Below are positions 1 to 47,333 of a stretch of DNA of 64,000 bases, piece by piece; within the stretch, counting starts at the first letter, position 1, and each line of letters begins with the position of its first letter. The stretch lies in sequence record PV467749.1, one strand, 5' to 3'. The notes under the pieces are model-generated. The model saw only the letters and a list, made by a program, of their open reading frames with translations, ran no database searches and was not told where the DNA came from. The translations under genes were made by a program, and so were the position numbers. Source of the DNA: a phage.

Positions 1-939
1 GAAGATAACAGTAGTGATTGTCAATTGTATGAAGAGAAAGGTACTGGAAAAGTTTTTATCACTGGTAACACGAAGGCATTCACTGGTGTAACTGATAGAA
101 AAACTTTGTGGACGGACTGTACTACGTGGATAACATCAAGTGGTATTAATGTTTCTGATATAAAATACATGAGTAGTTTTTATGATATGAAGGTGAATTT
201 GATAACAAACGATGGTACATTGTATTGTTGTGGAGCTAACAATATATCGAACATATCATCATTTGGTGATGGCACAAACATTAATTCTTTTAACACATTC
301 AAAAGAGTAGATACTATAACTTCGGTTAAAAAGGCTGTTGGTAACATTTATTTGCGAGAAGATAATACTTTATGGGGTTGTGGTTTTAACTATTACTACC
401 AGTTGGGCACGGGTAATCAAACTTCTATTACTGGGGTGACGATGATTTCTTCGGATGTTATAGATTTTAATGTAAGTTATCAGAGTACATTTTTTATCAA
501 ATCGGATAATAATTTGTACGCTTGTGGTAAACAGTTCGGTGCACAATATGGGAACGAATTTGGTACAGGTGGTACTTCCTCTTCTACTGATATACAATAT
601 AAAACTCCGACATTATTGAGTTCAGGAGTTTATACTCTATATACTTGTGTTGGTAACATGGCATCACATATTGTCAAAGCAGATGAAGTTCTATATGCTT
701 CTGGATCGAATAGGTTTGGGCAATTAGGTGTTGGTAATAATAATAATCAGTACTCCTATACTCCTTCATATACTTCGTTTAATACTTCGTGTAATTTGGT
801 ACGCACTCCATCTGGTTCACTTATACTTACTGACACTTCGAAGTTATATTATTCGGGTGCTTCATTTGTAGTAATGGGTGGTGGTGCTGGACAGAACGTT
901 CTTAATTATACCGAAGTCGATATGTCATTTGTGCAGTAA
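1..939 (+). CDS. RCC1-like beta-propeller repeat protein, array paralog 1 (5' end lies outside window)
   Basis: Frame is open from base 1 (ORF track starts at a TTG). Repeated RCC1-type motifs are present (LWGCGFNYYYQLGTGN, LYACGKQFGAQYGNEFGTGG, LYASGSNRFGQLGVGNN). It is followed by the conserved hairpin/promoter cassette. Confidence 0.8.
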   Translation, partial: EDNSSDCQLYEEKGTGKVFITGNTKAFTGVTDRKTLWTDCTTWITSSGINVSDIKYMSSFYDMKVNLITNDGTLYCCGANNISNISSFGDGTNINSFNTFKRVDTITSVKKAVGNIYLREDNTLWGCGFNYYYQLGTGNQTSITGVTMISSDVIDFNVSYQSTFFIKSDNNLYACGKQFGAQYGNEFGTGGTSSSTDIQYKTPTLLSSGVYTLYTCVGNMASHIVKADEVLYASGSNRFGQLGVGNNNNQYSYTPSYTSFNTSCNLVRTPSGSLILTDTSKLYYSGASFVVMGGGAGQNVLNYTEVDMSFVQ

Positions 940-1012
940 ATTAATATGCCAGTACTTGAGTACTGGCTTTTCTTTTTGTATTAAATATAGTATAATGAAT
1001 AAGGGAGGAAAT
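940..1012 (+). promoter_or_regulatory. Array cassette junction: hairpin terminator (gccagtacttgagtactggc, 948-967) + T-tract + conserved promoter block (TATAAT at 991-996) + SD AAGGGAGG
   Basis: Inverted repeat CCAGTACT..AGTACTGG followed by TTTTCTTTTT. The downstream block tattaaatatagtataatgaataagggaggaaat is conserved upstream of most array genes. Confidence 0.75.
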
Positions 1013-2122
1013 ATGTTACCTTTTGTAAGAATGGTTAAGTACGGGAATATTGCACCAGTACCGAAAAAAATAAAGAAAGTTATAGCAGGATATGATAATT
1101 TATATGTACTATATGGTGATGGTTCGCTATATGGTTGTGGAATCAATAACTATCAACAGTTAAATATTGATGGAACTGCTACACAAAATAATTGGGTACT
1201 AATTACCAATGGTGTTAGTAATGCATGGGCTGGTGGATACAATATTTTATATTTGAAAGAAGATAAATTTATAATGCACGGAACTAATGTCTCATTAGGT
1301 TTAGGAAATACTACAATTCCATTAGGTGGAGTAGATGTAACTTCTTCATTCCCAGATATCTCTAATATTAAAATGATATCCATTGGTTTTGATTCAATGC
1401 ACTATGTTAGTGCTGATGGTACAACTGTATATGGAAGAGGTATGAACACAAATGGTTCTGTTGGTTCAGGTAGTACTTACTCACAGAGTACTTTCACTTC
1501 AGTACTGAATAATGGAACTAATCAGGTTATTGATATATTTGGTAACGTTAATAATACAGTGCTTCTAACATCGAATGGTGAGCTTCGAGCATGTGGGACA
1601 AGTGCTTATGGTTCTATAGGAAATGAAACTGGTAAGTGGACATCGTTTGGTTTAAAATTATCTGGCACTAAAATAATGGGTGGTAATGGGTATAGTACGC
1701 TTGCATATACAAATTCGGGAATGTACCACTCAGGGTGGCAGTTAAATGGGGAACTAGGAAATGGTTTAAATACTAACGTACAGGTATATCCATTTCAATT
1801 TAACTCTAAAACGATAGATAGCAAGATAGATAAAATTGCCAAATCATCATCTGGGTCATATGTTAACATGTACTCAACAACAGAAGGAAAGATATATACG
1901 ACAGGTTCGTTTGGTAAAAACGGGTCAACTACTGCATTGAATTTGTTCACCAATACATTAACACTTATAAATTACAATCCAGATACCGCCTCGTTGTATA
2001 CGTGCACAAACTTCAGTGTTGTGTATGATGGTAATGAAACTATTGCTGTAAGTGGTAGTCCTACATATGTACCAGGGGGCGTTGCCGCTAATAGATGGAC
2101 TACAATTCCATTACCCAAGTAA
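1013..2122 (+). CDS. RCC1-like beta-propeller repeat protein, array paralog 2 (N-term MLPFVRMVKYGNIAP)
   Basis: ATG at 1013 lies 5 nt after SD AAGGGAGG. The ORF-track upstream extension (878-) reads through the promoter and is not credible. Motifs: LYGCGINNYQQLN, VYGRGMNTNGSVGSGS, LRACGTSAYGSIGNETG, MYHSGWQLNGELGNG. Confidence 0.85.
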   Translation: MLPFVRMVKYGNIAPVPKKIKKVIAGYDNLYVLYGDGSLYGCGINNYQQLNIDGTATQNNWVLITNGVSNAWAGGYNILYLKEDKFIMHGTNVSLGLGNTTIPLGGVDVTSSFPDISNIKMISIGFDSMHYVSADGTTVYGRGMNTNGSVGSGSTYSQSTFTSVLNNGTNQVIDIFGNVNNTVLLTSNGELRACGTSAYGSIGNETGKWTSFGLKLSGTKIMGGNGYSTLAYTNSGMYHSGWQLNGELGNGLNTNVQVYPFQFNSKTIDSKIDKIAKSSSGSYVNMYSTTEGKIYTTGSFGKNGSTTALNLFTNTLTLINYNPDTASLYTCTNFSVVYDGNETIAVSGSPTYVPGGVAANRWTTIPLPK

Positions 2123-2190
2123 TACTATGCCAGTACTTGATACTGGCTTTTTTTTGATTAAATATAGTATAATGAATAAAGGAGGGAATT
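2123..2190 (+). promoter_or_regulatory. Array cassette junction: hairpin terminator (2129-2147) + T8 + conserved promoter block (TATAAT 2168-2173) + SD AAAGGAGGG
   Basis: gccagtacttgatactggc tttttttt gattaaatatagtataatgaataaaggagggaatt ATG. Near-identical copies recur across the array. Confidence 0.8.
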
Positions 2191-3318
2191 ATGTTACCTT
2201 TTGTTAGAATGTTTGATTATGGGAATATAATCGAAGTTAATAATATAAAGAAAAGTGTTGTTAGTTACACTCTTGAAATGTTTCTAATGCAAGATGGCAC
2301 TGTATATGCACACGGTGAAGATTCAAACTATAATGCGGGTTTAAGTACACAGTTTGTATCGTTAGGAGCAGTTCAACAAATCACAACTGAAGTTGATGAC
2401 TTATGGTTAGGATCGTTTTCCGTTGTTATTAAAGGTGATAAAATATATGGTTCAGGTTCAACATATGCATTCACGAATTCTAATACTTTCCAACAAGGAT
2501 ATACTGACTGGGCTGTGTATTTCACTGGTATAGATGTTACCCAAATTAAAAAAATGTTATGTGGTTATACAGCATTTATATTAATGAAAGACGGAACACT
2601 TTATGGAAGAGGATGGAATCGAAGTGGTGCATTAGGTTTAGGACATAAAAATTATGTTTCAGCGTGGACTGTACTTGACACTAATGTGGATAATATATTT
2701 GGCGGTTACCTTGGCGATACATTGTTTAAGATTAAAAACGATGGAACTGTATATGGTTCAGGTTCAAATAACAGCTTTCAAGTTAAAGCAACATCGGGTG
2801 ATGCAACCACATTTGTTCCATTGTTTGATGATATATCTTATGATATAAAATGCAGTTTTGTTTCTGGTGTTGGTTTTGTAATGATAACATCTGATAATAA
2901 AATATATACAACTGGAACTACTTTTGCTGGTAGTGGTGCACATAGTAAAGTTTTTGATGTTGGTTTTACTATAGGTGATATGAGTAATATATATCATCCT
3001 GATTCGTTGGACTATTCGACTAGTGTTGTATTTTTAATTAATGCAGATACAAACAAACTAATAGCAACTGGGCATACCCCATTTACGGGAAGTAGTTCAA
3101 GTTCCCTTCCATATTTTACAGCATTTCAAGAATTCAATTTTACATCGTTCAATTCGAATACACGATATAGTGGGTCTTTATACTGGAATACATTTTACGA
3201 AGGTAATAATGTATGGATGAATGGATATAATCCTGAAAATACGGGTGGAAAGAATTTCTCATTGTGTTCAATACCGTTAGATACTATTATTACTAAGCAA
3301 ATTGATTTACCTTTTTGA
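2191..3318 (+). CDS. RCC1-like beta-propeller repeat protein, array paralog 3 (N-term MLPFVRMFDYGN)
   Basis: Strong SD with 8-nt spacing. Motifs: VYAHGEDSNYNAGLS, IYGSGSTYAFTNSNTFQQG, LYGRGWNRSGALGLGHKN, VYGSGSNNSFQV. Confidence 0.85.
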   Translation: MLPFVRMFDYGNIIEVNNIKKSVVSYTLEMFLMQDGTVYAHGEDSNYNAGLSTQFVSLGAVQQITTEVDDLWLGSFSVVIKGDKIYGSGSTYAFTNSNTFQQGYTDWAVYFTGIDVTQIKKMLCGYTAFILMKDGTLYGRGWNRSGALGLGHKNYVSAWTVLDTNVDNIFGGYLGDTLFKIKNDGTVYGSGSNNSFQVKATSGDATTFVPLFDDISYDIKCSFVSGVGFVMITSDNKIYTTGTTFAGSGAHSKVFDVGFTIGDMSNIYHPDSLDYSTSVVFLINADTNKLIATGHTPFTGSSSSSLPYFTAFQEFNFTSFNSNTRYSGSLYWNTFYEGNNVWMNGYNPENTGGKNFSLCSIPLDTIITKQIDLPF

Positions 3319-3388
3319 ATACTATGCCAGTACTTGATACTGGCTTTTTTTTTGATTAAATATAGTATAATGAATAAAGGAGGGAATT
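3319..3388 (+). promoter_or_regulatory. Array cassette junction: hairpin terminator (3326-3344) + T-tract + conserved promoter block + SD
   Basis: Same conserved sequence as 2123-2190. Confidence 0.8.
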
Positions 3389-4510
3389 ATGTTACCTTTT
3401 GTTAGAATGTTTGATTATGGAAATGAAGTACCTGATCCTAGTTCGGGATTTCGAATAATAAGTACAGGAGACGCATTACTATTAATTACTAAGAGTGGTG
3501 ATTTGTGGGTGCGTGGTTATAACCGTTATGGTAAGTTAGGTATAGGTAATAACACCACTACCTATGTACTTGATTGGACGAAGGTTAGAAGTGATGTAAA
3601 GTTTGCGTGTGGTAGTGGATTGGTAACAGTTATCTTTACTAAGGATAATCGCATATTGTACTGTGGTGACAAATGGTTTGAAACGGGTGGTGTTGGTAGT
3701 GCACAGATTTTCACATGGACAGATGTTACGCATCAATTTGGGGTAGTAGATTTGAGTACTGTAAGGGATATGAAAATATCTTATTACGCGATTGGGTTAG
3801 TTACTACTAATAATCAATTATACGCTAAGGGATTTGATAATAACCTATCATTTGGTGGGGTTACTAATAAGGCGACTGCTGTGTTTATTGCGAATAATGT
3901 ACAAGAGTTGTATACGAGTTTAGTTAGTACTATCTACGTTGATACAAGTGGTATATTACATCGTTGTGGCATGAGTGATAACGGTTCGTTGGGTAATAAT
4001 GGTAGTTTAACTTCGTATCTAAGTTATTCACAGACTGGTATGACGATTAAGGACATTGGAATGATGACTACGAACACTGGGTTATTATATACTGATTCTA
4101 GTGCACGCACGAGATATTTTATTGCTGGACAGAACTTGAATAAACAGATGGGTAATGCGGCGGGTGCGAGTGCCATTACGAGTACTTACACAGAGCTTTC
4201 TGGTAGTGTTGATAAGTTTTCTTCTTTATGGGAGAATGATGGGATATTGATGACATTTGCTGTGGGTAAGAACACTAATCAGTTATTTTATGCTGGGATG
4301 AATACTTTTCATGCGAGTGGTGGTGAATCTTCATATGCGGATACATATGAGTTAGTCCCGATGGTGTTTAATGACATACAGGAAGTGTTATGTGCACAGC
4401 GTTTATCGGTGGTACATGATTCTACGAAGTGGTATTACTGTGGTGATGCTAATTCAATGTATGGTTTACCGGACGTAAGTACTTTTACTGAGTTACCGTT
4501 GCCCTTTTAA
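3389..4510 (+). CDS. RCC1-like beta-propeller repeat protein, array paralog 4 (N-term MLPFVRMFDYGN)
   Basis: Motifs: LWVRGYNRYGKLGIGNNTT, LYCGDKWFETGGVGS, LHRCGMSDNGSLGNNGS, FIAGQNLNKQMGNAAG. Confidence 0.85.
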   Translation: MLPFVRMFDYGNEVPDPSSGFRIISTGDALLLITKSGDLWVRGYNRYGKLGIGNNTTTYVLDWTKVRSDVKFACGSGLVTVIFTKDNRILYCGDKWFETGGVGSAQIFTWTDVTHQFGVVDLSTVRDMKISYYAIGLVTTNNQLYAKGFDNNLSFGGVTNKATAVFIANNVQELYTSLVSTIYVDTSGILHRCGMSDNGSLGNNGSLTSYLSYSQTGMTIKDIGMMTTNTGLLYTDSSARTRYFIAGQNLNKQMGNAAGASAITSTYTELSGSVDKFSSLWENDGILMTFAVGKNTNQLFYAGMNTFHASGGESSYADTYELVPMVFNDIQEVLCAQRLSVVHDSTKWYYCGDANSMYGLPDVSTFTELPLPF

Positions 4511-4581
4511 TAATAGGTCAGTACTCAAGTACTGGCTTTTCTTTTTGATTAAATATAGTATAATGAATAAAGGAGGGAATT
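4511..4581 (+). promoter_or_regulatory. Array cassette junction: hairpin terminator (tcagtactcaagtactgg, ~4518-4537) + T-tract + conserved promoter block + SD
   Basis: Conserved cassette sequence. Confidence 0.8.
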
Positions 4582-5763
4582 ATGTTACCTTTTGTTAGAA
4601 TGTTTGATTATGGGAACGTCGTTGAGCCACCTGTGGGTACACGTTATACCTGTAGTGACTATAGTGCGACTTATAGTTTAATAAAGGATGGTGTGTTATA
4701 TGTATCTGGGATGAATAACTATTATCAGTTAGGTAATAACACTAACGTAACACGTTACAACGAGTGGTTAAAAGTTCCAGAGACTGATAGTGTTAAGTTT
4801 TGTAGTACTGGTTATAGTCAGACAATGTATCTGACTAACAATGGTAGGATAATGATAGCAGGTGAAGATCCTACTTCCAGTGCGACTTCGGTAAGTGTAA
4901 AGGTTTGGACGGATATAACTTCTAGATTTCGTGCAGTTGATACTAAAAAGATTGTTTATATTTCAATAGAACGCTTTGGTGTAATGATGATCATGGAAGA
5001 TGGTTCAGTATGGGCGTGTGGTGTTGATAATACTGGTTGGAGTGGACAAGGGAGTAAGACTGTTGGTTTCTTTACTTTCAGACAAATATACACCGGAAGT
5101 GCAGGAAGTGCAGTTGCTTGTACTGCTGGTACTGGTACTGCGAGAATTCTGTTAGCTAATGGAACAATCTTGTCCTCTGGTACTAATACATATCATCAAT
5201 GTAATGCTAGTACTAATCCGGCTGTTCTAACATTCACTGAATCATTCCCTGGGGTTGATCCTTCATTGATATATCAAATCAAGATGTGTAATAACAACTG
5301 TATTATATTTTTGAGTGATAAGAGATATTACGGTACTGGCTGGGGAAGTTTTGGTGCATTGGGTGATGGTGATATTACGGGTTCGAATAATAAATTCTAT
5401 GCAGGTACATTGTCAGTTGCTCCTAAAAACATGCGTGCTTATATGTCGTATCTATGTAGTTCTTCTGGGGATTCTAGTATGTACATAGGCGATGATAATT
5501 TCATATACACCTGCGGTTATCGTGGGAGGAACTTAATAAATGCCACTACAGATATTGGTACGTTCACGAAATGCATTCAAAGTGCACAAGGATACAAGAA
5601 TGGACTTATATATAGTGGGAATTATTGTGCTGTAGTTTTTGATCCAGATTTGGGTTCAGGAATGTCATATGCGGTTTCATCACCAAAATTGAATTCTCCA
5701 GCACCACAGGCTAGTGTTCCAGCATTGGGTATGAGTTCGTTACAATCTATCATTTTACCATAA
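4582..5763 (+). CDS. RCC1-like beta-propeller repeat protein, array paralog 5 (N-term MLPFVRMFDYGN)
   Basis: Motifs: LYVSGMNNYYQLGNNTN, VWACGVDNTGWSGQGS, YYGTGWGSFGALGDGD. Confidence 0.85.
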   Translation: MLPFVRMFDYGNVVEPPVGTRYTCSDYSATYSLIKDGVLYVSGMNNYYQLGNNTNVTRYNEWLKVPETDSVKFCSTGYSQTMYLTNNGRIMIAGEDPTSSATSVSVKVWTDITSRFRAVDTKKIVYISIERFGVMMIMEDGSVWACGVDNTGWSGQGSKTVGFFTFRQIYTGSAGSAVACTAGTGTARILLANGTILSSGTNTYHQCNASTNPAVLTFTESFPGVDPSLIYQIKMCNNNCIIFLSDKRYYGTGWGSFGALGDGDITGSNNKFYAGTLSVAPKNMRAYMSYLCSSSGDSSMYIGDDNFIYTCGYRGRNLINATTDIGTFTKCIQSAQGYKNGLIYSGNYCAVVFDPDLGSGMSYAVSSPKLNSPAPQASVPALGMSSLQSIILP

Positions 5764-5837
5764 ATGATACCAGTACTGAAATACGTACTGGTATTTTTTT
5801 GTAAATACATTATAATTATTATATGGAGATTTTAGTT
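5764..5837 (+). promoter_or_regulatory. Variant cassette junction: hairpin terminator (taccagtactgaaatacgtactggta) + T7 + variant promoter (ttgtaaatacattataatt) + SD GGAGA
   Basis: Uses the same AGTACT-type hairpin. The promoter block diverges but keeps TATAAT. Confidence 0.65.
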
Positions 5838-6968
5838 ATGTTACCTTTTGTTAGAATGTTTGATTATGGGAATACAGTGGCTGCTCCCACTGGTATAAAG
5901 GATTTCCAAGCAAATGGAAGCCACTGTATGGCACTAACATATAGTGGTGAGATGTGGGCTTATGGTACAAGTACAAGTGGATCAATGGGAACCGGATTCA
6001 CGGTGGGTGCTGCTGATAAGGGTTGGTACAAGTCTAACATTAGTAATGTTAAATCATTCAGTTCTAATATGCAGACTAGCACAGTGGCTTTGACAAATGA
6101 TGATAGAGTGCTAGTTTGTGGCTCAACTAGATTTGACAAATTCAGTACTCCAGATATTGCATCATCTAACCTTGATTGGTTGGATGTTACTGATCATATT
6201 CCACAGGAAGTTATTGATGCTGGGATGAAGCAAGTTATTAACCACGCATATTATGTTGCCATTTTTACTGAAAACAATCTATTATATAGTGTGGCATTAT
6301 CTTTGGGTAATACTAGTACTATAATAGATAGAACATGGCGAAGAAATACATTTGGTGATATACAAGTTGAACGTGTTGTTTCGTTGACACAAACCCCAAG
6401 TGGTCCTTTGTGTATAGTTCAAGATGCTGCCGGATACCAGTATGGTATTGGATATAATGGTAATAAGATTATTGATAATACTTCCACTAATTCATATTCT
6501 GTATATACCAAAATGGGTACACTTCCTTACAATGAATTTGCCATATCGAATAGCGGGAAATTCAGTTCAGCGGTATTATCAGATGGGAGAAGTGTTTATA
6601 GTGGTACATTTCCAAAGTCATTCAATGATAGTTTTGGTTCATTTTTGAAAGTTGGTGCGGTATCAAATACTGTGTTTGGTTTAGATGCAAAAAATATGCG
6701 TGGTCAATATGGTCAAAATCAATTACCAATTGCGTCGGCTGATAACAATGCAAGTAATGGCGTTGTGAGCCTTCGTAATGTTCCAGCGGGAACACAAACG
6801 AAAGACATTCGATTTATATGCGGAAATGATGTAAAGAACGTTTATATCATATACACAAATGAAGACGGCATTAGTTCATTTTATGGATTGGGACCAAACT
6901 TTGATCAAAATTCCTCAGCATATGCACAATTCGTCAAAGTGGATTTGCCAGGGGCATTACTAAATTAA
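5838..6968 (+). CDS. RCC1-like beta-propeller repeat protein, array paralog 6 (N-term MLPFVRMFDYGN), first of a 3-gene operon
   Basis: The ATG at 5838 starts the conserved MLPFVRMFDYGN. The ORF-track start at 5823 adds 5 residues and has no SD. The propeller motifs are divergent (MWAYGTSTSGSMGTG). Confidence 0.8.
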   Translation: MLPFVRMFDYGNTVAAPTGIKDFQANGSHCMALTYSGEMWAYGTSTSGSMGTGFTVGAADKGWYKSNISNVKSFSSNMQTSTVALTNDDRVLVCGSTRFDKFSTPDIASSNLDWLDVTDHIPQEVIDAGMKQVINHAYYVAIFTENNLLYSVALSLGNTSTIIDRTWRRNTFGDIQVERVVSLTQTPSGPLCIVQDAAGYQYGIGYNGNKIIDNTSTNSYSVYTKMGTLPYNEFAISNSGKFSSAVLSDGRSVYSGTFPKSFNDSFGSFLKVGAVSNTVFGLDAKNMRGQYGQNQLPIASADNNASNGVVSLRNVPAGTQTKDIRFICGNDVKNVYIIYTNEDGISSFYGLGPNFDQNSSAYAQFVKVDLPGALLN

Positions 6969-6978
6969 GGAGAGAAAT

Positions 6979-8181
6979 ATGTTACCTTTTGCGAGGATGG
7001 TTAAGTTCGGGAATATTGCACCAGGGCCAGAACCAATAGAGTTCTCAAATGTTTTACAACAACATTATACAAACTGTATGTATCTACATAGCCCAACTAA
7101 TACTTTATATGGTTATGGTAGTAATAACTTTTATCAATTTGGTCTTGGGAATTCAGCAGCAGTTGCGTCATTTACAGTACTTGCAACGCGATGTGCAGCC
7201 TTTTGGCTTGGTGTTCAAGGTTCATTGATGATTGATTTGGATAATAAAATATACTACACTGGGTCGGTTGGTGCATTTTCTGATTATGGAGATGCAACAC
7301 CTGTTAATGGTTATTTGAGAACATGGACTGATGTTACTGCTTCATTTAATAAAATTGGTGTTATGGCTAATATGATCAAGAGTGTATATATAGGTGAAAG
7401 TACTAGAATATTATTAACCGATGGTAGAGTAATTGCGTGTGGAAGAAATACCAATGGTGAATGTGGGTCTGGTAATCGAAATTCCATACCTACACTAACA
7501 GTTATGACTAATATGGGTGAAGTTACACATATGGCATGTTCATTACAAGGAACGCACTATATTAAATCAAATAAAAAGGCATGGTTTTGTGGTAAGGATA
7601 ACTTCGGTGAAAGTGGTTGTGGTGCTAGTTCTATGATATATTTGAACAAATATGTGATGAGTGATGTCGAACATATTAGTACTACATACGATGTTACTTG
7701 GTGGTTTACTACTGGTGGGCCTGTATATTATAGCGGGGCTAACAGTACTGGACAAGCTGGTAATGGTACGACTACATCGGTAAATCAGCTAACACCAATT
7801 AGGAACACATCGGTCACGGTTGATGTAAGTAAGTACAGTACTTTTATTTGTCCAAGTAATATGGGAAATGCATCAATTGGTGCACCTATGGCACAATACG
7901 CACCATATGTTAGAAGTAGTGGTGCTAACGGATACGGTCAAGAAGGTAATGGAACTAATACATTAGTTAGGACTTGGAATATTTTTAATCTTAATGCAAT
8001 AAGTGGTGGTTATGACAATGTTCTTATGGCATCTAAAGATTGGAGCAGAACCATAATAATTACTAAAGATTATAAATTATATGCATGTGGTGGCTGGAAT
8101 GGTAATGGTGGTAGATTGCCTGATGGCACTTATAGTATTACTACACTAACATTAATGCCAACGCAGTTATGGCAACAATAG
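6979..8181 (+). CDS. RCC1-like beta-propeller repeat protein, array paralog 7 (N-term MLPFARMVKFGNIAP)
   Basis: SD AAGGAGAG lies 10 nt after the stop of paralog 6. No terminator or promoter cassette intervenes. Motifs: LYGYGSNNFYQFGLGNS, VIACGRNTNGECGSGN, WFCGKDNFGESGCGAS, VYYSGANSTGQAGNG. Confidence 0.85.
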   Translation: MLPFARMVKFGNIAPGPEPIEFSNVLQQHYTNCMYLHSPTNTLYGYGSNNFYQFGLGNSAAVASFTVLATRCAAFWLGVQGSLMIDLDNKIYYTGSVGAFSDYGDATPVNGYLRTWTDVTASFNKIGVMANMIKSVYIGESTRILLTDGRVIACGRNTNGECGSGNRNSIPTLTVMTNMGEVTHMACSLQGTHYIKSNKKAWFCGKDNFGESGCGASSMIYLNKYVMSDVEHISTTYDVTWWFTTGGPVYYSGANSTGQAGNGTTTSVNQLTPIRNTSVTVDVSKYSTFICPSNMGNASIGAPMAQYAPYVRSSGANGYGQEGNGTNTLVRTWNIFNLNAISGGYDNVLMASKDWSRTIIITKDYKLYACGGWNGNGGRLPDGTYSITTLTLMPTQLWQQ

Positions 8182-8189
8182 GAGGAATT

Positions 8190-9299
8190 ATGTTACCTTT
8201 TGTAAGACTATTTGATTATGGGAATATTACCTCTGGTCCTAAAAATATAATTAAAGTTGGTGCTTCTACTCAAGGTCAATTCGTATTGACTGATTCACAT
8301 GAATTGTATTACATAGGCAGAAATCAAGGTGGTGAATCTGGAAATGGTAATAAAAACACGGTATCTTCTTGGACATTAGTAAGTGCAGATGTTTCTAATT
8401 TTTTCACTGGAGGACGAACACTTGTTATTATTAAAAATGACAATACGATATGGACATCAGGTGAAACATTTTGGTTCACATCATCATCAACAACTTCTTA
8501 CAGTACTACATTAGTTGATAGAACGGAGTGGTTTACAAATACAATTCCTGTGAATCAAATTGCTAATATTGTATGCAATGGTGGTGTAATATTTGTACTC
8601 AGTTCAAGTTCAGTACTCTATGGTGCTGGGGCTAATGGATACCGTGGTGTATTGGGGATTGGTTCTTCATCAATATATACATTAACACTATGTGCTTCTA
8701 ATGTGCGTAAAGTTATGTCTACTCCTAATGATAGTATGTATATTAGCATAGATAATAAGTTATATAGTTCAGGGTGGAATGACCGTGGATTACATGGCAC
8801 AGGGAACAGAACACAAGTTAACATTTGGGGACTGCGTAGTTCTGGTGTAATAGATGCAGCTATTGGTGGACATACACTCAATTACTATAATGGTACATCA
8901 TATTTCACATGTGGTACAACTCCAAACTTTCTTAGTTCAGATTCAACTACATTCAAAGCAGTTCCTGTAAGTACTTTACCTAATAATTCACCTTTGTTTA
9001 TGACAAATTCAGAGGCAACAAGCACGGCTACGCAAATTATATTAACTAGTGCATATCAGAAAGGTATTGGGGGAAACCGTGGTTTGGGATTAAACAATTC
9101 TCAAACGGGTGCTATCTATAGTGCTGCTAATTTACAATTACCTGTAGAAGTTAGTGAGATTAGTGATGTTGCTTTTAGTGACGGATTAACATCATTATTA
9201 ACCAAAGACGGGAATGTATATAGTACTGGATCGTATTACGCCATTCCAGGTGCAAGTGCAGATGTTGCAGTCTTTACTAAAATTGATTTACCAAAATAA
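8190..9299 (+). CDS. RCC1-like beta-propeller repeat protein, array paralog 8 (N-term MLPFVRLFDYGN)
   Basis: ATG at 8190 follows AGGAGGAATT. The region 8169-8189 overlaps the end of paralog 7. Motifs: LYYIGRNQGGESGNGN, LYGAGANGYRGVLGIGS, LYSSGWNDRGLHGTGN. Confidence 0.85.
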   Translation: MLPFVRLFDYGNITSGPKNIIKVGASTQGQFVLTDSHELYYIGRNQGGESGNGNKNTVSSWTLVSADVSNFFTGGRTLVIIKNDNTIWTSGETFWFTSSSTTSYSTTLVDRTEWFTNTIPVNQIANIVCNGGVIFVLSSSSVLYGAGANGYRGVLGIGSSSIYTLTLCASNVRKVMSTPNDSMYISIDNKLYSSGWNDRGLHGTGNRTQVNIWGLRSSGVIDAAIGGHTLNYYNGTSYFTCGTTPNFLSSDSTTFKAVPVSTLPNNSPLFMTNSEATSTATQIILTSAYQKGIGGNRGLGLNNSQTGAIYSAANLQLPVEVSEISDVAFSDGLTSLLTKDGNVYSTGSYYAIPGASADVAVFTKIDLPK

Positions 9300-9369
9300 C
9301 ATAATGCCAGTACAGAGTACTGGCTTTTCTTTTTGGTTAAATATAGTATAATGAATAAAGGAGGGAATT
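9300..9369 (+). promoter_or_regulatory. Array cassette junction: hairpin terminator (gccagtacagagtactggc) + T-tract + conserved promoter block + SD
   Basis: Conserved cassette sequence. Confidence 0.8.
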
Positions 9370-18861: not shown

Positions 18862-19233
18862 TTATAACATACGTTTTTTACGAATAGTATTGTGGATATT
18901 TTTTAAGTAGTTCACACCTTTACACAACCCATAAAATACACCAGCACATACACCAAATGCAGGTATCATACATGCAAACATCGTTATCAATTCCCACATC
19001 TCCATGCCATCTTGATTCGGTCCAAGGTCAAAGATAACAACCGAAACCAAACCTGTGATACTTAGCATATAATATGCCATGAAGATAATAAAAGAAACAA
19101 TACCAACATCAGAGCGAACTGAATTTAGCATATTATATACTGGGGTTACACAGAAGTAATACAATAACCAAATCAAAGAACCTAAACTAAACACAATAAT
19201 AGTAATGATCGAAAATATTTCACGATAACTCAT
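18862..19233 (-). CDS. Small polytopic membrane protein, family A paralog 1
   Basis: 123 aa with 3-4 hydrophobic helices and a basic C-terminus (RKKRML). It is one of 7 contiguous paralogs with overlapping or abutting starts and stops. Confidence 0.7.
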   Translation of the reverse strand: MSYREIFSIITIIVFSLGSLIWLLYYFCVTPVYNMLNSVRSDVGIVSFIIFMAYYMLSITGLVSVVIFDLGPNQDGMEMWELITMFACMIPAFGVCAGVFYGLCKGVNYLKNIHNTIRKKRML

Positions 19234-19234
19234 T

Positions 19235-19597
19235 TTAGTTCCTCTTACCTAAACGCTCATGGATTTCGGAAATCTTATTATACATCCATGCCAGCAACTC
19301 AACGGATGCACAGAGAATAACCACACACAGTGTTAGTGAACATACCATAATACCAAATGTTATAAAATTCGAACTCGATGTTAATAATGCAACCAGCATT
19401 AGAATAAAACCAAAATTGAATGCTGTACTCAACACAGTATATGCTGGACTATATCTCCTTTGTATTACATCATATATATTTGATAATGGTCGCTTATGGA
19501 AGTACTTCCCAATGCACACGAATGCATTCAGTGAGAAGATAAATGTATACGCCATTACCATTAATTGACCAATAAAAGATAATTCAATATTATTCAT
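19235..19597 (-). CDS. Small polytopic membrane protein, family A paralog 2
   Basis: 120 aa with TM helices. SD GAGGA. Confidence 0.7.
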   Translation of the reverse strand: MNNIELSFIGQLMVMAYTFIFSLNAFVCIGKYFHKRPLSNIYDVIQRRYSPAYTVLSTAFNFGFILMLVALLTSSSNFITFGIMVCSLTLCVVILCASVELLAWMYNKISEIHERLGKRN

Positions 19598-19598
19598 G

Positions 19599-19970
19599 TT
19601 ATCCTCGTTTGCGGTATTTGATGCTTTGGTGCATTCTCTGAAAATGTGGAACTAATACATATTGTACGGTTTGCCAAATTACCATCAGATTATGGACAGC
19701 ACCACCGAGTAGACCAAACACTACACAGATAATTGCCAGTACTGGATCACCATCTACCATACCCCATTTGAATATATGTAAAATCCATACAGTGATAAGT
19801 AGTAATAAACTAATCCAATACGTAGTAAAAAATCCTGCATGTAATTCATAGTCATCAGCAATTTCATCGTATACGGTTTCCAAGAAGGATACACAGAAGA
19901 ACTTGCCAATAATAATAATTGTACTAATAAACAACATAGCAGTTAATATAATAAGTGCAATTTCCATCAC
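19599..19970 (-). CDS. Small polytopic membrane protein, family A paralog 3
   Basis: 123 aa with TM helices. SD GAGGGA. Confidence 0.7.
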   Translation of the reverse strand: MMEIALIILTAMLFISTIIIIGKFFCVSFLETVYDEIADDYELHAGFFTTYWISLLLLITVWILHIFKWGMVDGDPVLAIICVVFGLLGGAVHNLMVIWQTVQYVLVPHFQRMHQSIKYRKRG

Positions 19971-20281
19971 ATCCCTCGTTTACGCTTTTGATTGCGTCTA
20001 AATTCGGTTAGCCCACGACTAATCGGTGGCATCAGACTACATAAAAAAATAACAGTTGTTGGTAATAACATGAAGTCAATCATTGCTGTATTAACAGGTG
20101 GATCACATACCAAATAATACAAACAAGTAATACTAATTATGGTTGACCCAATAAAAGGAATACAAAATTCTTTTATCTGTTTTTCAACATAATCAAACAT
20201 CTTCAATACAAATAAAAATCCAACCCAACACATAATAAAATAGAATGAATAAAGCGTGTAAATCAATGTTACGATATCCAT
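19967..20281 (-). CDS. Small polytopic membrane protein, family A paralog 4
   Basis: 104 aa with TM helices. 4-nt overlap with the neighbour. Confidence 0.7.
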   Translation of the reverse strand: MDIVTLIYTLYSFYFIMCWVGFLFVLKMFDYVEKQIKEFCIPFIGSTIISITCLYYLVCDPPVNTAMIDFMLLPTTVIFLCSLMPPISRGLTEFRRNQKRKRGM

Positions 20282-20619
20282 TAGTACCTCGCATCAGGAA
20301 CTTTAGCACGTAATTTATGAACGACTGGGAACAACAACAAACTTACATATGCAATAGTTGAACCCCAATAGAATACTAATATAATTGGTTCACCATTGGA
20401 ACGGAACCCTCTACTAATCATTGAGTAGTGAATAATAGGCATGAACATCGCCATACCAAACCATGCGTGTAATTTTAATTGCAGCATGTTATCAGAGATG
20501 AATACTGAAATTGGTCGTTTGAAGAACCACATCAGAAAGTAGAATCCAGCACTAAGGATATAGTACATAGTACTAACTTTCATATACCACGGCAGTAAGT
20601 GTAAAAAATATTCCATCAT
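20281..20619 (-). CDS. Small polytopic membrane protein, family A paralog 5
   Basis: 112 aa. C-terminal ...HKLRAKVPDARY. Confidence 0.7.
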   Translation of the reverse strand: MMEYFLHLLPWYMKVSTMYYILSAGFYFLMWFFKRPISVFISDNMLQLKLHAWFGMAMFMPIIHYSMISRGFRSNGEPIILVFYWGSTIAYVSLLLFPVVHKLRAKVPDARY

Positions 20620-20963
20620 TCCTCCGGTATCTTGTTTCGAAGTTCAATCATAACACAACAAAGTTTAATGGTCAAGTAAAAAACTACACATATCATACCC
20701 AATGTACCGTAAACTGCGGAGAATGCTGGCAGTACCTTTCCTGTGAGTGTTGCTACAATACATGCTATCAATGTTGATGCAAACAACGATTGATTAATGA
20801 AAGAATTCATAAAATCTTCACCATTACGCTTATAGAATTGTCGTTTAAAATACCATCCTAGAAACATAACTACCCAAAATGTTACATAACCTGTTAGAAT
20901 AATCCCTGCAATTGAATGTGCAACAGAACTACTCTTTAAAAACTCAAGATAAGATTCAAACAT
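20616..20963 (-). CDS. Small polytopic membrane protein, family A paralog 6
   Basis: 115 aa. C-terminal ...IELRNKIPEE. Confidence 0.7.
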   Translation of the reverse strand: MFESYLEFLKSSSVAHSIAGIILTGYVTFWVVMFLGWYFKRQFYKRNGEDFMNSFINQSLFASTLIACIVATLTGKVLPAFSAVYGTLGMICVVFYLTIKLCCVMIELRNKIPEE

Positions 20964-21301
20964 TAGAAGTCCCCACGAATTTTTGCTCTACCATTAATGA
21001 TGAGATTAAACAAGTATATCAGCACCCAAATTAGTAATCCAAGGAATACAATATATTGTGATATTGAGTTCAACTGTGGATTAGCACAATAAATTAAGTG
21101 TGCGATAAGACCAACAATTGCAAACATACCTTGGATAATAGTGAAAAGAAGTAGTGAAATGTTTCCATCTGGATACAGTTTGAAAACGATTTTCTTTTTA
21201 AAATACCATAGTACTACAACTAGTGCATGATAAAAGAAAAAACCAAACAGATAAATCAAAGTAATACTAAGCATTGTATCTGAATTAAAAAACTCAAGCA
21301 T
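20963..21301 (-). CDS. Small polytopic membrane protein, family A paralog 7
   Basis: 112 aa with TM helices. C-terminal ...GRAKIRGDF. Confidence 0.7.
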   Translation of the reverse strand: MLEFFNSDTMLSITLIYLFGFFFYHALVVVLWYFKKKIVFKLYPDGNISLLLFTIIQGMFAIVGLIAHLIYCANPQLNSISQYIVFLGLLIWVLIYLFNLIINGRAKIRGDF

Positions 21302-29028: not shown

Positions 29029-29069
29029 ATTGTTTATTCTCTATGACTATATTTATAGTATAAAGAAAA

Positions 29070-41593: not shown

Positions 41594-42559
41594 TTAAAAA
41601 TCTTCGAACTCATAACCTTTTGTCTTAACCATCTTACGCAGTCGTTCCATTGCTTCAGAGTACTTACGGTGCAATGAAGAACGAGCAGTCATGACCTTAC
41701 CCTTCTCATCTTCAAAACCACTCTCAATGATTTCTCGTAGCGTTTCTGGTTCAGAATAAGAACCAATACCATGTACACGTTCAATCAATTCACGGTCTTT
41801 GGCAGATAGGTTACTCATCATTTCTGCAATACTTTGTACCAGTGGGGTACTGACAGTTTCTACGCCTAAGTTGTAATCAGGTTCAACTGAAGTAACAATG
41901 TCAGATAATGTACTTTCTGAATCATTACTCATTTTCATATTCAATGCTACATAAGTGTTATTGTAAGTTAGACAATTCTTAACGTGTTGAATCTCAATAC
42001 CAGTCTCTTTTGACACCATCTCAGGAGTTGGGTATTTACCATGTTTCCTTTGATACTCTTCTACACAACGTTTCACATAAATGTTATTAACACTCATATA
42101 ACGTGGGAAATGCACTAGATAATTAGCATCCGCACTTTCGTTATAGATTGTCATGTACACAGTTGTTGTTGCATATGTAATGAACTTAACATTTTTGGTA
42201 GTGTCGAACGTATGAATTGCTCGCATTAAACCTTCAACACCATAAGAAATCTTATCTTCAAATGGGATAAAACATGTACACTTACGTGCAACACTTACTA
42301 CCATTGGATAGTTGTAGCGAACCAAAAGGTCAATGTTCTTTTCAACGTCAATACCATCACGCACTGCTTGGATGAGCATTTCATTCGTTATCCCTTTAGG
42401 GCGAGTTAAGCTGATACCTGTTTTTGGTTTCTCAAACTTGTGACCGTCATGTTCTTCTTCTTCGACGGAATCAAGAGCCTCTAATACGTTGACTTCTTCA
42501 CTAGCAAAACACTCATCCAGTACTTCTTCAGAAATTGCATTTAAATCAAGCTTTTTCAC
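41594..42559 (-). CDS. Sigma-70 family RNA polymerase sigma factor (phage-encoded)
   Basis: 321 aa. Region-2-like segment KFITYATTTVYMTIYNESADANYLVHFPRYM. Region-4-like HTH LSAKDRELIERVHGIGSYSEPETLREIIE. Confidence 0.7.
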   Translation of the reverse strand: MKKLDLNAISEEVLDECFASEEVNVLEALDSVEEEEHDGHKFEKPKTGISLTRPKGITNEMLIQAVRDGIDVEKNIDLLVRYNYPMVVSVARKCTCFIPFEDKISYGVEGLMRAIHTFDTTKNVKFITYATTTVYMTIYNESADANYLVHFPRYMSVNNIYVKRCVEEYQRKHGKYPTPEMVSKETGIEIQHVKNCLTYNNTYVALNMKMSNDSESTLSDIVTSVEPDYNLGVETVSTPLVQSIAEMMSNLSAKDRELIERVHGIGSYSEPETLREIIESGFEDEKGKVMTARSSLHRKYSEAMERLRKMVKTKGYEFEDF

Positions 42560-47217: not shown

Positions 47218-47333
47218 AAAATCCCCTTATTGATATTCCATTTAAGTATACGTCAAAAACACAACTCAGTCAAGGTGCTTTTTTACCTATCTAGAATAAA
47301 TACGTTATAATAATTATACCAATGGAGGGATGA

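Follow-up and report, generated by a model that had tools for sequence, protein, structure and literature searches.

The phage sequence record PV467749.1, analysed as a window of 64,000 nucleotides, carries at 25..18825 (+) an array of tandem cassettes, recognized from the list of open reading frames (ORFs) and from repeat families; 14 of the cassettes are complete and a further one is truncated by the edge of the window. The junction in front of one of these cassettes, at 2123-2226, is probably a composite inter-cassette linker, formed by a terminator, a late-type promoter without a -35 element, a ribosome site and the codons of a short N-terminal tag, which provides the homology for cassette exchange. 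In this reading, the hairpin and T tract would act as an intrinsic terminator closing the upstream gene, and a T4-late-type TAAATA box, with an A/T-rich TATAAT 3 nt later, would be the likely recognition element of a promoter whose likely reader is a gp55-like factor. Transcription would start inside the TATAAT block to give a leader of ~20 nt, and a strong ribosome-binding site would then lead into 12 codons of a disordered tag. Given this order of elements, each cassette looks like a self-contained unit for a tagged protein, probably late. Because the cassette bodies lack DNA similarity (protein identity is ~19%), the linker would be the only homology usable by a T4-type recombination system. 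Crossovers in the linker might delete, insert, replace and reorder cassettes between co-infecting relatives while leaving genes and expression intact, and the same recombination might keep the linker copies homogeneous, down to the synonymous sites of the tag codons.

The upstream gene ends with a stop codon at 2120-2122 (+), read from the sequence. The elements that the original prediction had listed for this junction (a hairpin, a T tract, TTGATT, TATAAT and a 36-nt ORF start) were all located in their places. The hairpin GCCAGTACTTGATACTGGC (GCCAGTA-CTTGA-TACTGGC; 2129..2147, +), detected by a scan for terminator-like sites and by folding, is followed by eight T (2148..2155, +), which complete the shape of an intrinsic terminator and also cover the site that a -35 hexamer would occupy. 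TTGATT (2154-2159, +) is separated by an 8-nt spacer from TATAAT (2168-2173, +; read from the sequence). The latter is the second part of a bipartite promoter-like block, TTAAATA-tag-TATAAT (2158..2173, +; spacer letters in lower case), which has no -35 element. A Shine-Dalgarno (SD) sequence, AGGAGGG (2180..2186, +), lies 4 nt 5' of the ATG at 2191, from which the 12 codons of the N-terminal tag MLPFVRMFDYGN (2191..2226, +) form the coding part of the repeat. The gene downstream, cassette 'W' (2191..3318, +), encodes 375 aa.

This arrangement is repeated along the array, the genes of which lie head-to-tail and encode proteins of 369-449 aa, and the full unit is found at 10 of the 13 junctions of the 14-gene array. 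The 23-nt core of promoter and SD occurs 10 times with at most one mismatch and the 36-nt ORF start eight times with at most three, against none expected from shuffles in either case. The first 40 nt are 73-100% identical across 14/14 array genes, and these shared starts confirm that the repeat extends 36 nt into each ORF. Full junctions (n=10) have a pairwise identity of 84% (77-93%) over -76..+36, whereas the adjoining 112 nt are only 25% identical upstream and 36% downstream; the block TTAAATA-tag-TATAAT does not vary at all among the ten. Pairs of junctions are exactly identical over stretches of at most 75 nt, the longest such stretch per pair having a median length of 33 nt. The ~110-bp repeat is thus real at 84% identity, and its description as near-identical was slightly generous, given exact matches of 33-75 nt. 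Terminator-like sites number 25 in 1..20000 against 8.4 expected, with one per full junction. Across 11 phages, the promoter block is present in 104 of 136 (76%) internal junctions with a hairpin before nearly all, and the stems reach -10 to -17 kcal/mol. Because the stem is mostly invariant and shows few compensatory variants (TGTCAGTACT/AGTACTGACA, GGTCAGTAC/GTACTGACC and CTTGTACT/AGTACAAG, plus G-U-compatible changes), support from covariation is anecdotal, and hairpin and T run are regarded as a putative intrinsic (Rho-independent) terminator.

By megablast the window belongs to an Asteriusvirus jumbo coliphage, related to 121Q, PBECO4 and phAPEC6. Downstream of the array it is 98-99% identical to WPEC3, EC.P1, fEgEco12 and vB_Ec-M-J, while megablast coverage of the array itself is only 17-69% in relatives. 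The arrays of 11 relatives were compared; CMSTMSU, whose array is full of frameshifts, was dropped, and 136 genes with the tag, from the window and the remaining ten relatives, were clustered at 90% identity. They fall into 48 clusters, 15 of which are singletons. Cassette order differs between every pair of the 11 arrays, a genome carries from 8 to 16 tag-bearing genes, and no cluster is present twice within one genome; at least two different downstream neighbours were found for 25 of the 33 clusters that occur in at least two phages. Breakpoints were defined as the ends of collinear segments of at least 95% identity in pairwise array alignments. Left ends (n=156, all distinct) fall in the zone from -110 to +45 of a cassette ATG in 86% of cases and right ends (n=144) in 94%; this zone makes up ~13% of the array (binomial P ~1e-94, with ends treated as independent). 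Left ends cluster at -80..-60, where the hairpin starts, or at -20..0 at those tight junctions that keep only the ribosome site and tag codons; right ends cluster at +20..+45. Tight junctions, although without hairpin and promoter, also bound exchanges, with homology ending at +12..+40. Cassette E, for instance, has K, L, l, u or O as its next neighbour, depending on the phage, again with homology ending at +12..+40. These alignments show whole cassettes as the unit of exchange and the shared block as its boundary.

Individual junctions point in the same direction. The junction at 4515-4617 combines a left hairpin arm, GGTCAGTACT, from a variant junction with an otherwise canonical remainder, and a variant junction with this arm holds the same place (I>B) in EC.P1, EcMJ, Turkey3 and fEgEco12; the crossover of this chimera lies inside the hairpin. 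For one and the same gene pair, different phages carry reassorted combinations of loop, T-tract length, GATT/GTATT, spacer and tag class. With divergence computed by a pairwise aligner, orthologous junctions differ at 4.3-6.0 per 100 nt, flanking coding DNA at 1.25-3.2 and the tag codons at 0.72. The last cassette (ATG 17701), which stands behind a minus-strand gene and keeps its position in 8/8 clade genomes, has the most diverged junction. The genus encodes RecA-like, gp46/47-like and EndoVII-like recombination genes, and the exchange would most plausibly be homologous rather than site-specific. The original prediction had proposed to look among relatives for arrays that differ in the number and order of their cassettes and break within the repeat, and this comparison came out positive, with ~90% of breakpoints in the unit. 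With 48 cassette types, no shared order and such a share of breakpoints, the comparative data support the reading of the repeat as a recombination scaffold, while the promoter assignment needs revision.

The tag comprises 12 residues, MLPFxRMxxYGN (M-L-P-F-x-R-M-x-x-Y-G-N). Array proteins of the window are 83% identical in residues 1-12 versus 19% in the remainder, and identical amino acids are written with identical codons in 79% of pairs in codons 1-12 versus 44.5% elsewhere. Since the tag codons also include the non-preferred CCT and GGG, this synonymous identity indicates that they are homogenized at the DNA level. Orthologues down to 45% identity retain M[LI]PFx[RK][MI]xxYGN. In a distant metagenomic array, the genes are mostly separated by gaps of 10-13 nt, the non-coding repeat is absent at most junctions, and MIPF(T/A)(R/K)I(L/I)xYGN is retained with freely varying codons. 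The earlier proposal that the invariant N-terminus partly reflects DNA conservation holds in so far as DNA homogenization is seen here, but this is not the main cause, as the codons vary freely in the distant array. The tag is under protein-level selection, with DNA homogenization added on top in this phage group.

All window cassettes are RCC1-like (Pfam RCC1/WD40_RLD). The AlphaFold model of the cassette at 2191 is a beta-propeller (predicted local distance difference test, pLDDT, 88.7; predicted template modelling score, pTM, 0.88), and its best Foldseek matches are UVR8, RCC1 and HERC2 domains. Residues 1-15 form the sole low-confidence stretch (pLDDT <50), outside the propeller, and are predicted to be disordered; the tag was for this reason rejected as the closing (Velcro) strand of the propeller. 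In the relatives, Pfam identifies Kelch propellers in clusters c, u and v (E 1e-11 to 1e-27), and cluster G is a 245-aa glycine-rich protein (PF21722-type family), all with the same tag and junction. These clusters belong to different PHROG families. Tagged cassettes of the Kelch (~300 aa) or glycine-rich kind, among them EcMJ_585 and 121Q gp243, occur in several relatives. Glycine-rich homologues in other phage lineages start with MLELL/MIELL instead of the tag, and in 250 kb of Asteriusvirus sequence scanned the tag did not occur outside array cassettes. Being attached to varied folds and found nowhere else in those 250 kb, the tag appears to act as a portable, lineage-specific N-terminal signal.

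The virion proteome of phAPEC6 includes eight array proteins, gp003, 005, 006, 007, 009, 010, 549 and 551 (PMC7247149 Table 1). A tentative extension, which we consider somewhat less probable than its contrary, is that the tag serves as a docking or incorporation signal that loads the fused protein onto or into the virion, with the linker trading cargos as modules, so that the locus would be an array of 'tagged cargo'. Possible destinations are the hairy decorations on capsid and tail, or the set of ejected proteins. A targeting sequence cleaved by a protease was considered and rejected, as no conserved Glu or (L/I)xE follows the tag among 13 window paralogues. If the tagged-cargo reading is true, the locus would be a fast-evolving repertoire for host interaction or anti-defence.

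The promoter block lacks both a -35 element and a TG extension, and the -35 position of the junctions lies in the T tract or in the hairpin arm (CTTTTC/GGCTTT). A scan of 1..20000 for sigma-70 promoters gave 89 sites against 103 expected, with none at a junction among the 60 listed. Lacking a -35 element, the block is rejected as a standard sigma-70 promoter, a point on which the original prediction had been right. In distant metagenomic arrays TTAAATA-N3-TATA(A/T)T is retained while the leaders diverge, and in relatives the bipartite block also stands before the first array gene, where there is no hairpin. An exact search for the block in IMG/VR returned only 121Q and one 7-kb contig. In the window, the sole other bipartite block in a plausible promoter context is ATAAATA-cgt-TATAAT (47296..47311, +), upstream of 47334..48491, a homologue of the phAPEC6 virion protein gp077; other near-matches outside the array were discarded, since they look like chance.

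The more informative half of the block seems to be the upstream one. In phAPEC6, ATAAATA lies 25-60 nt upstream of many virion genes, among them those for major capsid, scaffold, protease, baseplate, gp035c, gp037c and gp077, and the window homologues of the last three carry it at 29050, 30292 and 47296. The window holds 11 copies of ATAAATA against 39 +/- 6 expected (3.6-fold depleted), all on the locally coding strand; besides the three just given, they stand at 52658, 54260, 54439, 56159, 57120, 58885, 59628 and 60336. These copies are likely late promoters dispersed among small, early-looking genes. In phAPEC6, 3/3 copies in 1-50 kb are upstream of virion genes detected by mass spectrometry, and 14/16 copies in 130-180 kb are at most 90 nt upstream of genes. 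The shorter TAAATA is depleted 3.3-4-fold, while TATAAT and controls of the same composition occur at expectation; TTAAATA is found 21 times in the window, 11 of them in junction blocks. A gp55-like 'sigma factor for late transcription' is encoded in phAPEC6 (gp237c) beside gp46/47 homologues, outside the part that corresponds to the window. For the related phages CBB and GAP32, ATAAATA late promoters have been predicted (PMC5259590).

The T4-type late promoter, TATAAATA, which is read by gp55, is an A/T box at -10 only, with no -35 element. The junction sequence ATTAAATA matches it at 6/8 positions with the core TAAATA exact, and a gp55-like sigma factor is encoded in the genus Asteriusvirus. 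Like the late promoters of T4 and the ATAAATA boxes of CBB and GAP32, the junction box lies 25-45 nt upstream of the starts of virion genes (PMC5259590). It differs from T4-type and ordinary genus late promoters in that TTAAATA or GTAAATA is followed after 3 nt by TATAAT, which the latter lack. The recognition element of the junction promoter is probably the TAAATA box, of late type. The perfect TATAAT emphasized by the original prediction is indeed present, without a -35 element, but the element that carries the information is probably the TAAATA box upstream of it. Middle or late timing had also been proposed, and late expression agrees with array proteins having been detected in virions of phAPEC6 (PMC7247149). 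A gp55-like late sigma factor is favoured as the reader because TAAATA, and not TATAAT, is depleted and placed upstream of virion genes.

The reader originally named was the product of 41594..42559 (-), which Pfam confirms as a sigma-70-family factor with regions 2 and 3 and no region 4. According to this alternative, TATAAT would be the -10 element of a -35-less promoter read by that factor in the middle or late phase, and TAAATA would be an upstream extension contacted by sigma region 3. Such a factor, lacking region 4, would suit a promoter without a -35 element, and TATAAT is held at a fixed 3 nt in the junctions, in the distant arrays and before the gp077-like gene, but not at other late promoters, so that the array promoters form a distinguishable subclass. 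We nevertheless regard this alternative as unlikely. TATAAT occurs at chance level genome-wide, while TAAATA is 3-4 times depleted and a gp55-like factor exists. A start 7 nt past TATAAT would leave a leader of only ~11 nt that begins at the ribosome site. The homologous factor of CBB is reported to have region 4 too and to sit in the predicted early region, and 41594..42559 lies in the small-gene region predicted for CBB to be early; moreover, the predicted middle promoters of CBB have TGAAACG at -35, which is absent here (PMC5259590). Finally, the array products are virion proteins, as are those of genes behind ATAAATA boxes.

Several points weigh against the explanation of the junction as a late-type promoter combined with an exchange linker. 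The junction box, TTAAATA or GTAAATA, is one base off the ATAAATA of the structural genes, and the strict TATAAT 3 nt downstream is not found at other late promoters, so that the late-promoter model leaves it unexplained; for these two reasons the sigma-70-type alternative keeps its small share of probability. Use of the junction promoter, its start site and timing, the identity of the sigma factor and termination are all predicted. Detection of the array proteins in phAPEC6 virions was by 1-5 peptides each (PMC7247149). Regarding exchange, the binomial P is only indicative because segment ends are not independent events, and crossovers are located to the shared block rather than within it because blast segments always reach the edge of the repeat. 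Much of the non-coding identity could be due simply to the function of terminator, promoter and ribosome site, and differences in order, as opposed to content, might in principle include misassembly of short reads across the repeats.

A further alternative treats the shared unit as a relic of gene duplication in tandem, in which each gene would have been copied along with its terminator, promoter, ribosome site and functional N-terminus; selection would maintain these, and the unit would have no particular role in recombination. Earlier papers did interpret the array genes as tandem duplicates, or as 'DNA condensation' proteins (PMC7247149, PMC5646251). In agreement with a relic, recognizable functional elements account for most of the conserved non-coding positions, and the tag is under protein-level selection. 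This alternative is nonetheless improbable, since it does not account for the homogenized synonymous sites of the tag with their non-preferred CCT and GGG, nor for the reassortment among copies and genomes of neutral features such as the loop, the T-tract length and the spacers. Content and order differ between genomes with 98-99% identical flanks, ~90% of the boundaries are in the repeat, and no recent duplicate is present in any array. Furthermore, duplication of an RCC1-like gene cannot yield Kelch and glycine-rich genes that carry the same tag and junction.

An equally poor candidate is integron-like exchange that is specific for a site or structure, whereby a phage nuclease or recombinase would cut the CCAGTACT..AGTACTGG stem or its cruciform and rejoin the ends. 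The stem sequence is indeed more strictly conserved than a terminator requires, it is made of CAGTACT, a motif 20-fold over-represented genome-wide, its loops are found in either orientation, a crossover inside the hairpin is seen in one chimera, and HNH and EndoVII-type nucleases are encoded in the genus. On the other hand, annotation, the level of this check, shows no integrase or other site-specific recombinase within or near the array in any of the 11 genomes, tight junctions without a hairpin also exchange and are bounded by tag codons, and homology lies on both sides of any putative site, with no fixed breakpoint evident across junctions. Very improbable, finally, is that the shuffling is an assembly artefact of short reads mis-joined across 110-nt repeats: assemblies with small k can be misled by identical stretches of 33-75 nt that recur every 1.2 kb, and the CMSTMSU record is visibly error-ridden, but misassembly cannot make 48 cassette types or 15 clusters unique to one of 11 genomes, many sub-orders repeat in independent genomes from different laboratories and countries, and the repeats are shorter than typical reads.

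The closest precedent for the linker is the promoter-early stem-loop (PeSL), a composite terminator/promoter cassette of T4-type phages, rather than the integron (PMC2839356, PMC4122927). Both PeSL and junction are conserved units of ~100 bp that join a stem-loop terminator, a promoter and a ribosome site; both stand between variable genes, those of a hyperplastic region for PeSL, with the boundaries of indels and replacements in the element; and PeSL has been proposed to serve homologous recombination as a linker while leaving every module insulated in its transcription (PMC2839356, PMC4122927). Mapped crossovers of PeSL lie in the loop, within the A/T-rich part and in the stretches between -10, SD and ATG, a pattern similar to the chimera in the window. 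PeSL, however, has a strong sigma-70-like early promoter with a -35 element, whereas the junction has none and carries a late-like box. PeSL flanks unrelated small ORFans, whereas the junction linker runs 36 nt into genes for large virion-associated proteins and gives them a common protein tag. The stems are GGGG..CCCC in PeSL and CCAGTACT..AGTACTGG here. The PeSL host is a T4-like phage and the present one an Asteriusvirus jumbo phage, with some T4-type core functions in common. Because the sigma-70 early promoter and T4-like residence fail and a coding tag is added, the junction is a PeSL-like variant and not a member. The linker function thus has a precedent in PeSL, while the coding tag and the late-like box set the junctions apart.

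The integron-like logic of the original prediction fails on integrase, attC and shared promoter, and it should yield to PeSL as the direct precedent (PMC2839356, PMC4122927). Integrons do share with the array single-gene cassettes that each end in an inverted repeat and a content and order that vary between close relatives. However, attC sites measure 57-141 nt, whereas the junction hairpins are near-perfect, 19-30 nt long and, with their T tract, of terminator shape. Integron cassettes depend on a common Pc promoter, whereas a promoter-like block and terminator of its own are present in 76% of 136 junctions here. The integron tyrosine recombinase intI has no annotated counterpart in or beside the array in 11 genomes, at the level of annotation only, and the exchange boundaries here are not at a fixed site. 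In other systems, namely the orphan toxin/immunity arrays of contact-dependent inhibition (CDI) and Rhs loci and the silent cassettes of pilin and variant surface glycoprotein (VSG) genes, a short conserved coding start provides homology for swapping the variable part, and the cassettes are moved into a single expression site. In contrast to these, every cassette here appears to be independently expressed, and exchange occurs between genomes.

T4 internal proteins offer a further parallel, as they are diverse virion proteins that have in common only a short conserved N-terminal stretch, the capsid targeting sequence, and are encoded at a variable locus (PMC3012670). They are small basic proteins, whereas the array encodes beta-propellers of 30-50 kDa, with no established similarity of the tag to the T4 targeting sequence. 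In addition, no cleavage motif is conserved in the array proteins, which could equally be surface decorations.

Taken in this way, the junctions extend the idea of PeSL, in which a regulatory element is at the same time a recombination linker, beyond T4-like phages to jumbo phages, and beyond early ORFans to virion-associated proteins that are large and probably late, and they provide a case in which the linker reaches into coding sequence with a protein tag. The 'DNA condensation/RCC1' genes would be reinterpreted as a hypervariable, tagged beta-propeller family, with 48 types in 11 genomes and three domain families; such hypervariability is typical of loci for host interaction or counter-defence. 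If the tag directs incorporation into virions, it would be a simple handle to load foreign proteins onto a jumbo phage. Depletion of (A)TAAATA offers a cheap and testable definition of late promoters for the genus.

Besides 2123-2226, full junction copies, all on the plus strand, are found at 948..1048 (ATG 1013), 3326..3424 (ATG 3389), 4515..4617 (ATG 4582; the chimera), 9306..9405 (ATG 9370), 10547..10648 (ATG 10613; the gene behind it is frameshifted), 11797..11899 (ATG 11864), 13047..13148 (ATG 13113), 14304..14403 (ATG 14368; left hairpin arm damaged, -5.4 kcal/mol) and 15724..15823 (ATG 15788). A variant junction at 5766..5873 (+; ATG 5838) has a longer hairpin, ATACCAGTAC..GTACTGGTAT, the block GTAAATA-cat-TATAAT and a different leader. 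The tight junctions, neither of which has an intergenic part, are at 6966..7014 (+; ATG 6979), where hairpin and promoter are both absent, and at 8177..8225 (+; ATG 8190); they keep only the ribosome site and the 36 nt of the tag codons. An orphan junction at 16943..16988 (+), formed by a hairpin, a T tract and a degenerate block, TACATATTATATAAT, has no plus-strand gene behind it and marks the right-hand boundary of the N/D cassette replacement. It is followed by a gene on the minus strand (16973..17623; phrog_34359), which separates the last two cassettes in all clade genomes. The diverged junction of the last cassette (17669..17736, +; ATG 17701) reads TTAAATA-aag-TATAAC and encodes the tag MLPFVLLFDYGN, and this cassette is followed by a terminator hairpin at 18830..18856 (+), with the stem CCAGTACT..AGTACTGG and a fold z of -5.3. 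A search of Rfam with 1..20000 gave no family at gathering score.

The frameshifted cassette, 10613-11792, meets a stop after 59 codons; from 10716 onward its ORF continues in a different frame. In WPEC3 the position that matches 10613 (L001 25741) shows the same start with the tag, while the ORF annotated there begins ~100 nt downstream. This cassette may be a pseudogene, contain a recoding site or result from an error in sequencing. Pairing of the T tract with the purine-rich ribosome site is seen in several of the predicted junction folds, with 14 pairs before 14368, for example. It might be speculated from these models, the z-scores of which are weak, that such pairing masks the ribosome site in read-through transcripts; if so, translation would be limited to transcripts begun at the cassette's own promoter. 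Beside the array, seven back-to-back genes on the minus strand (18862-21301) encode small hydrophobic membrane-like proteins of 104-123 aa with weak mutual similarity, a second and far more diverged tandem family.

Hairpin loops occur in both orientations on otherwise identical stems, as TTGA versus TCAA (949-966 vs 16947-16964) and AGA versus TCT (9307-9323 vs 15725-15741); such inversions are what recombination between the arms, or a template switch from one arm to the other, would be expected to produce. In the literature searched, neither these junctions nor the CAGTACT motif, two inverted copies of which make up the junction stems, was seen to be described. The motif occurs 174 times in the window against 8.7 +/- 2.8 expected, for example at 1500, 5771, 19737, 21444 and 60450, in all reading frames and in both orientations, with 21% of copies intergenic. 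The 8-bp palindrome CAGTACTG is present in 37 copies, TCAGTACT is the most frequent 8-mer of the window, and GGTACC and CGTACG are absent from it. CAGTACT(G) could be part of the biology of tagged cargo, for instance as a binding or recombination signal. phAPEC6 and distant metagenomic relatives are just as rich in CAGTACT (56 copies in 6.6 kb of one such relative), and the pattern of the motif resembles that of a highly iterated palindrome such as cyanobacterial HIP1.

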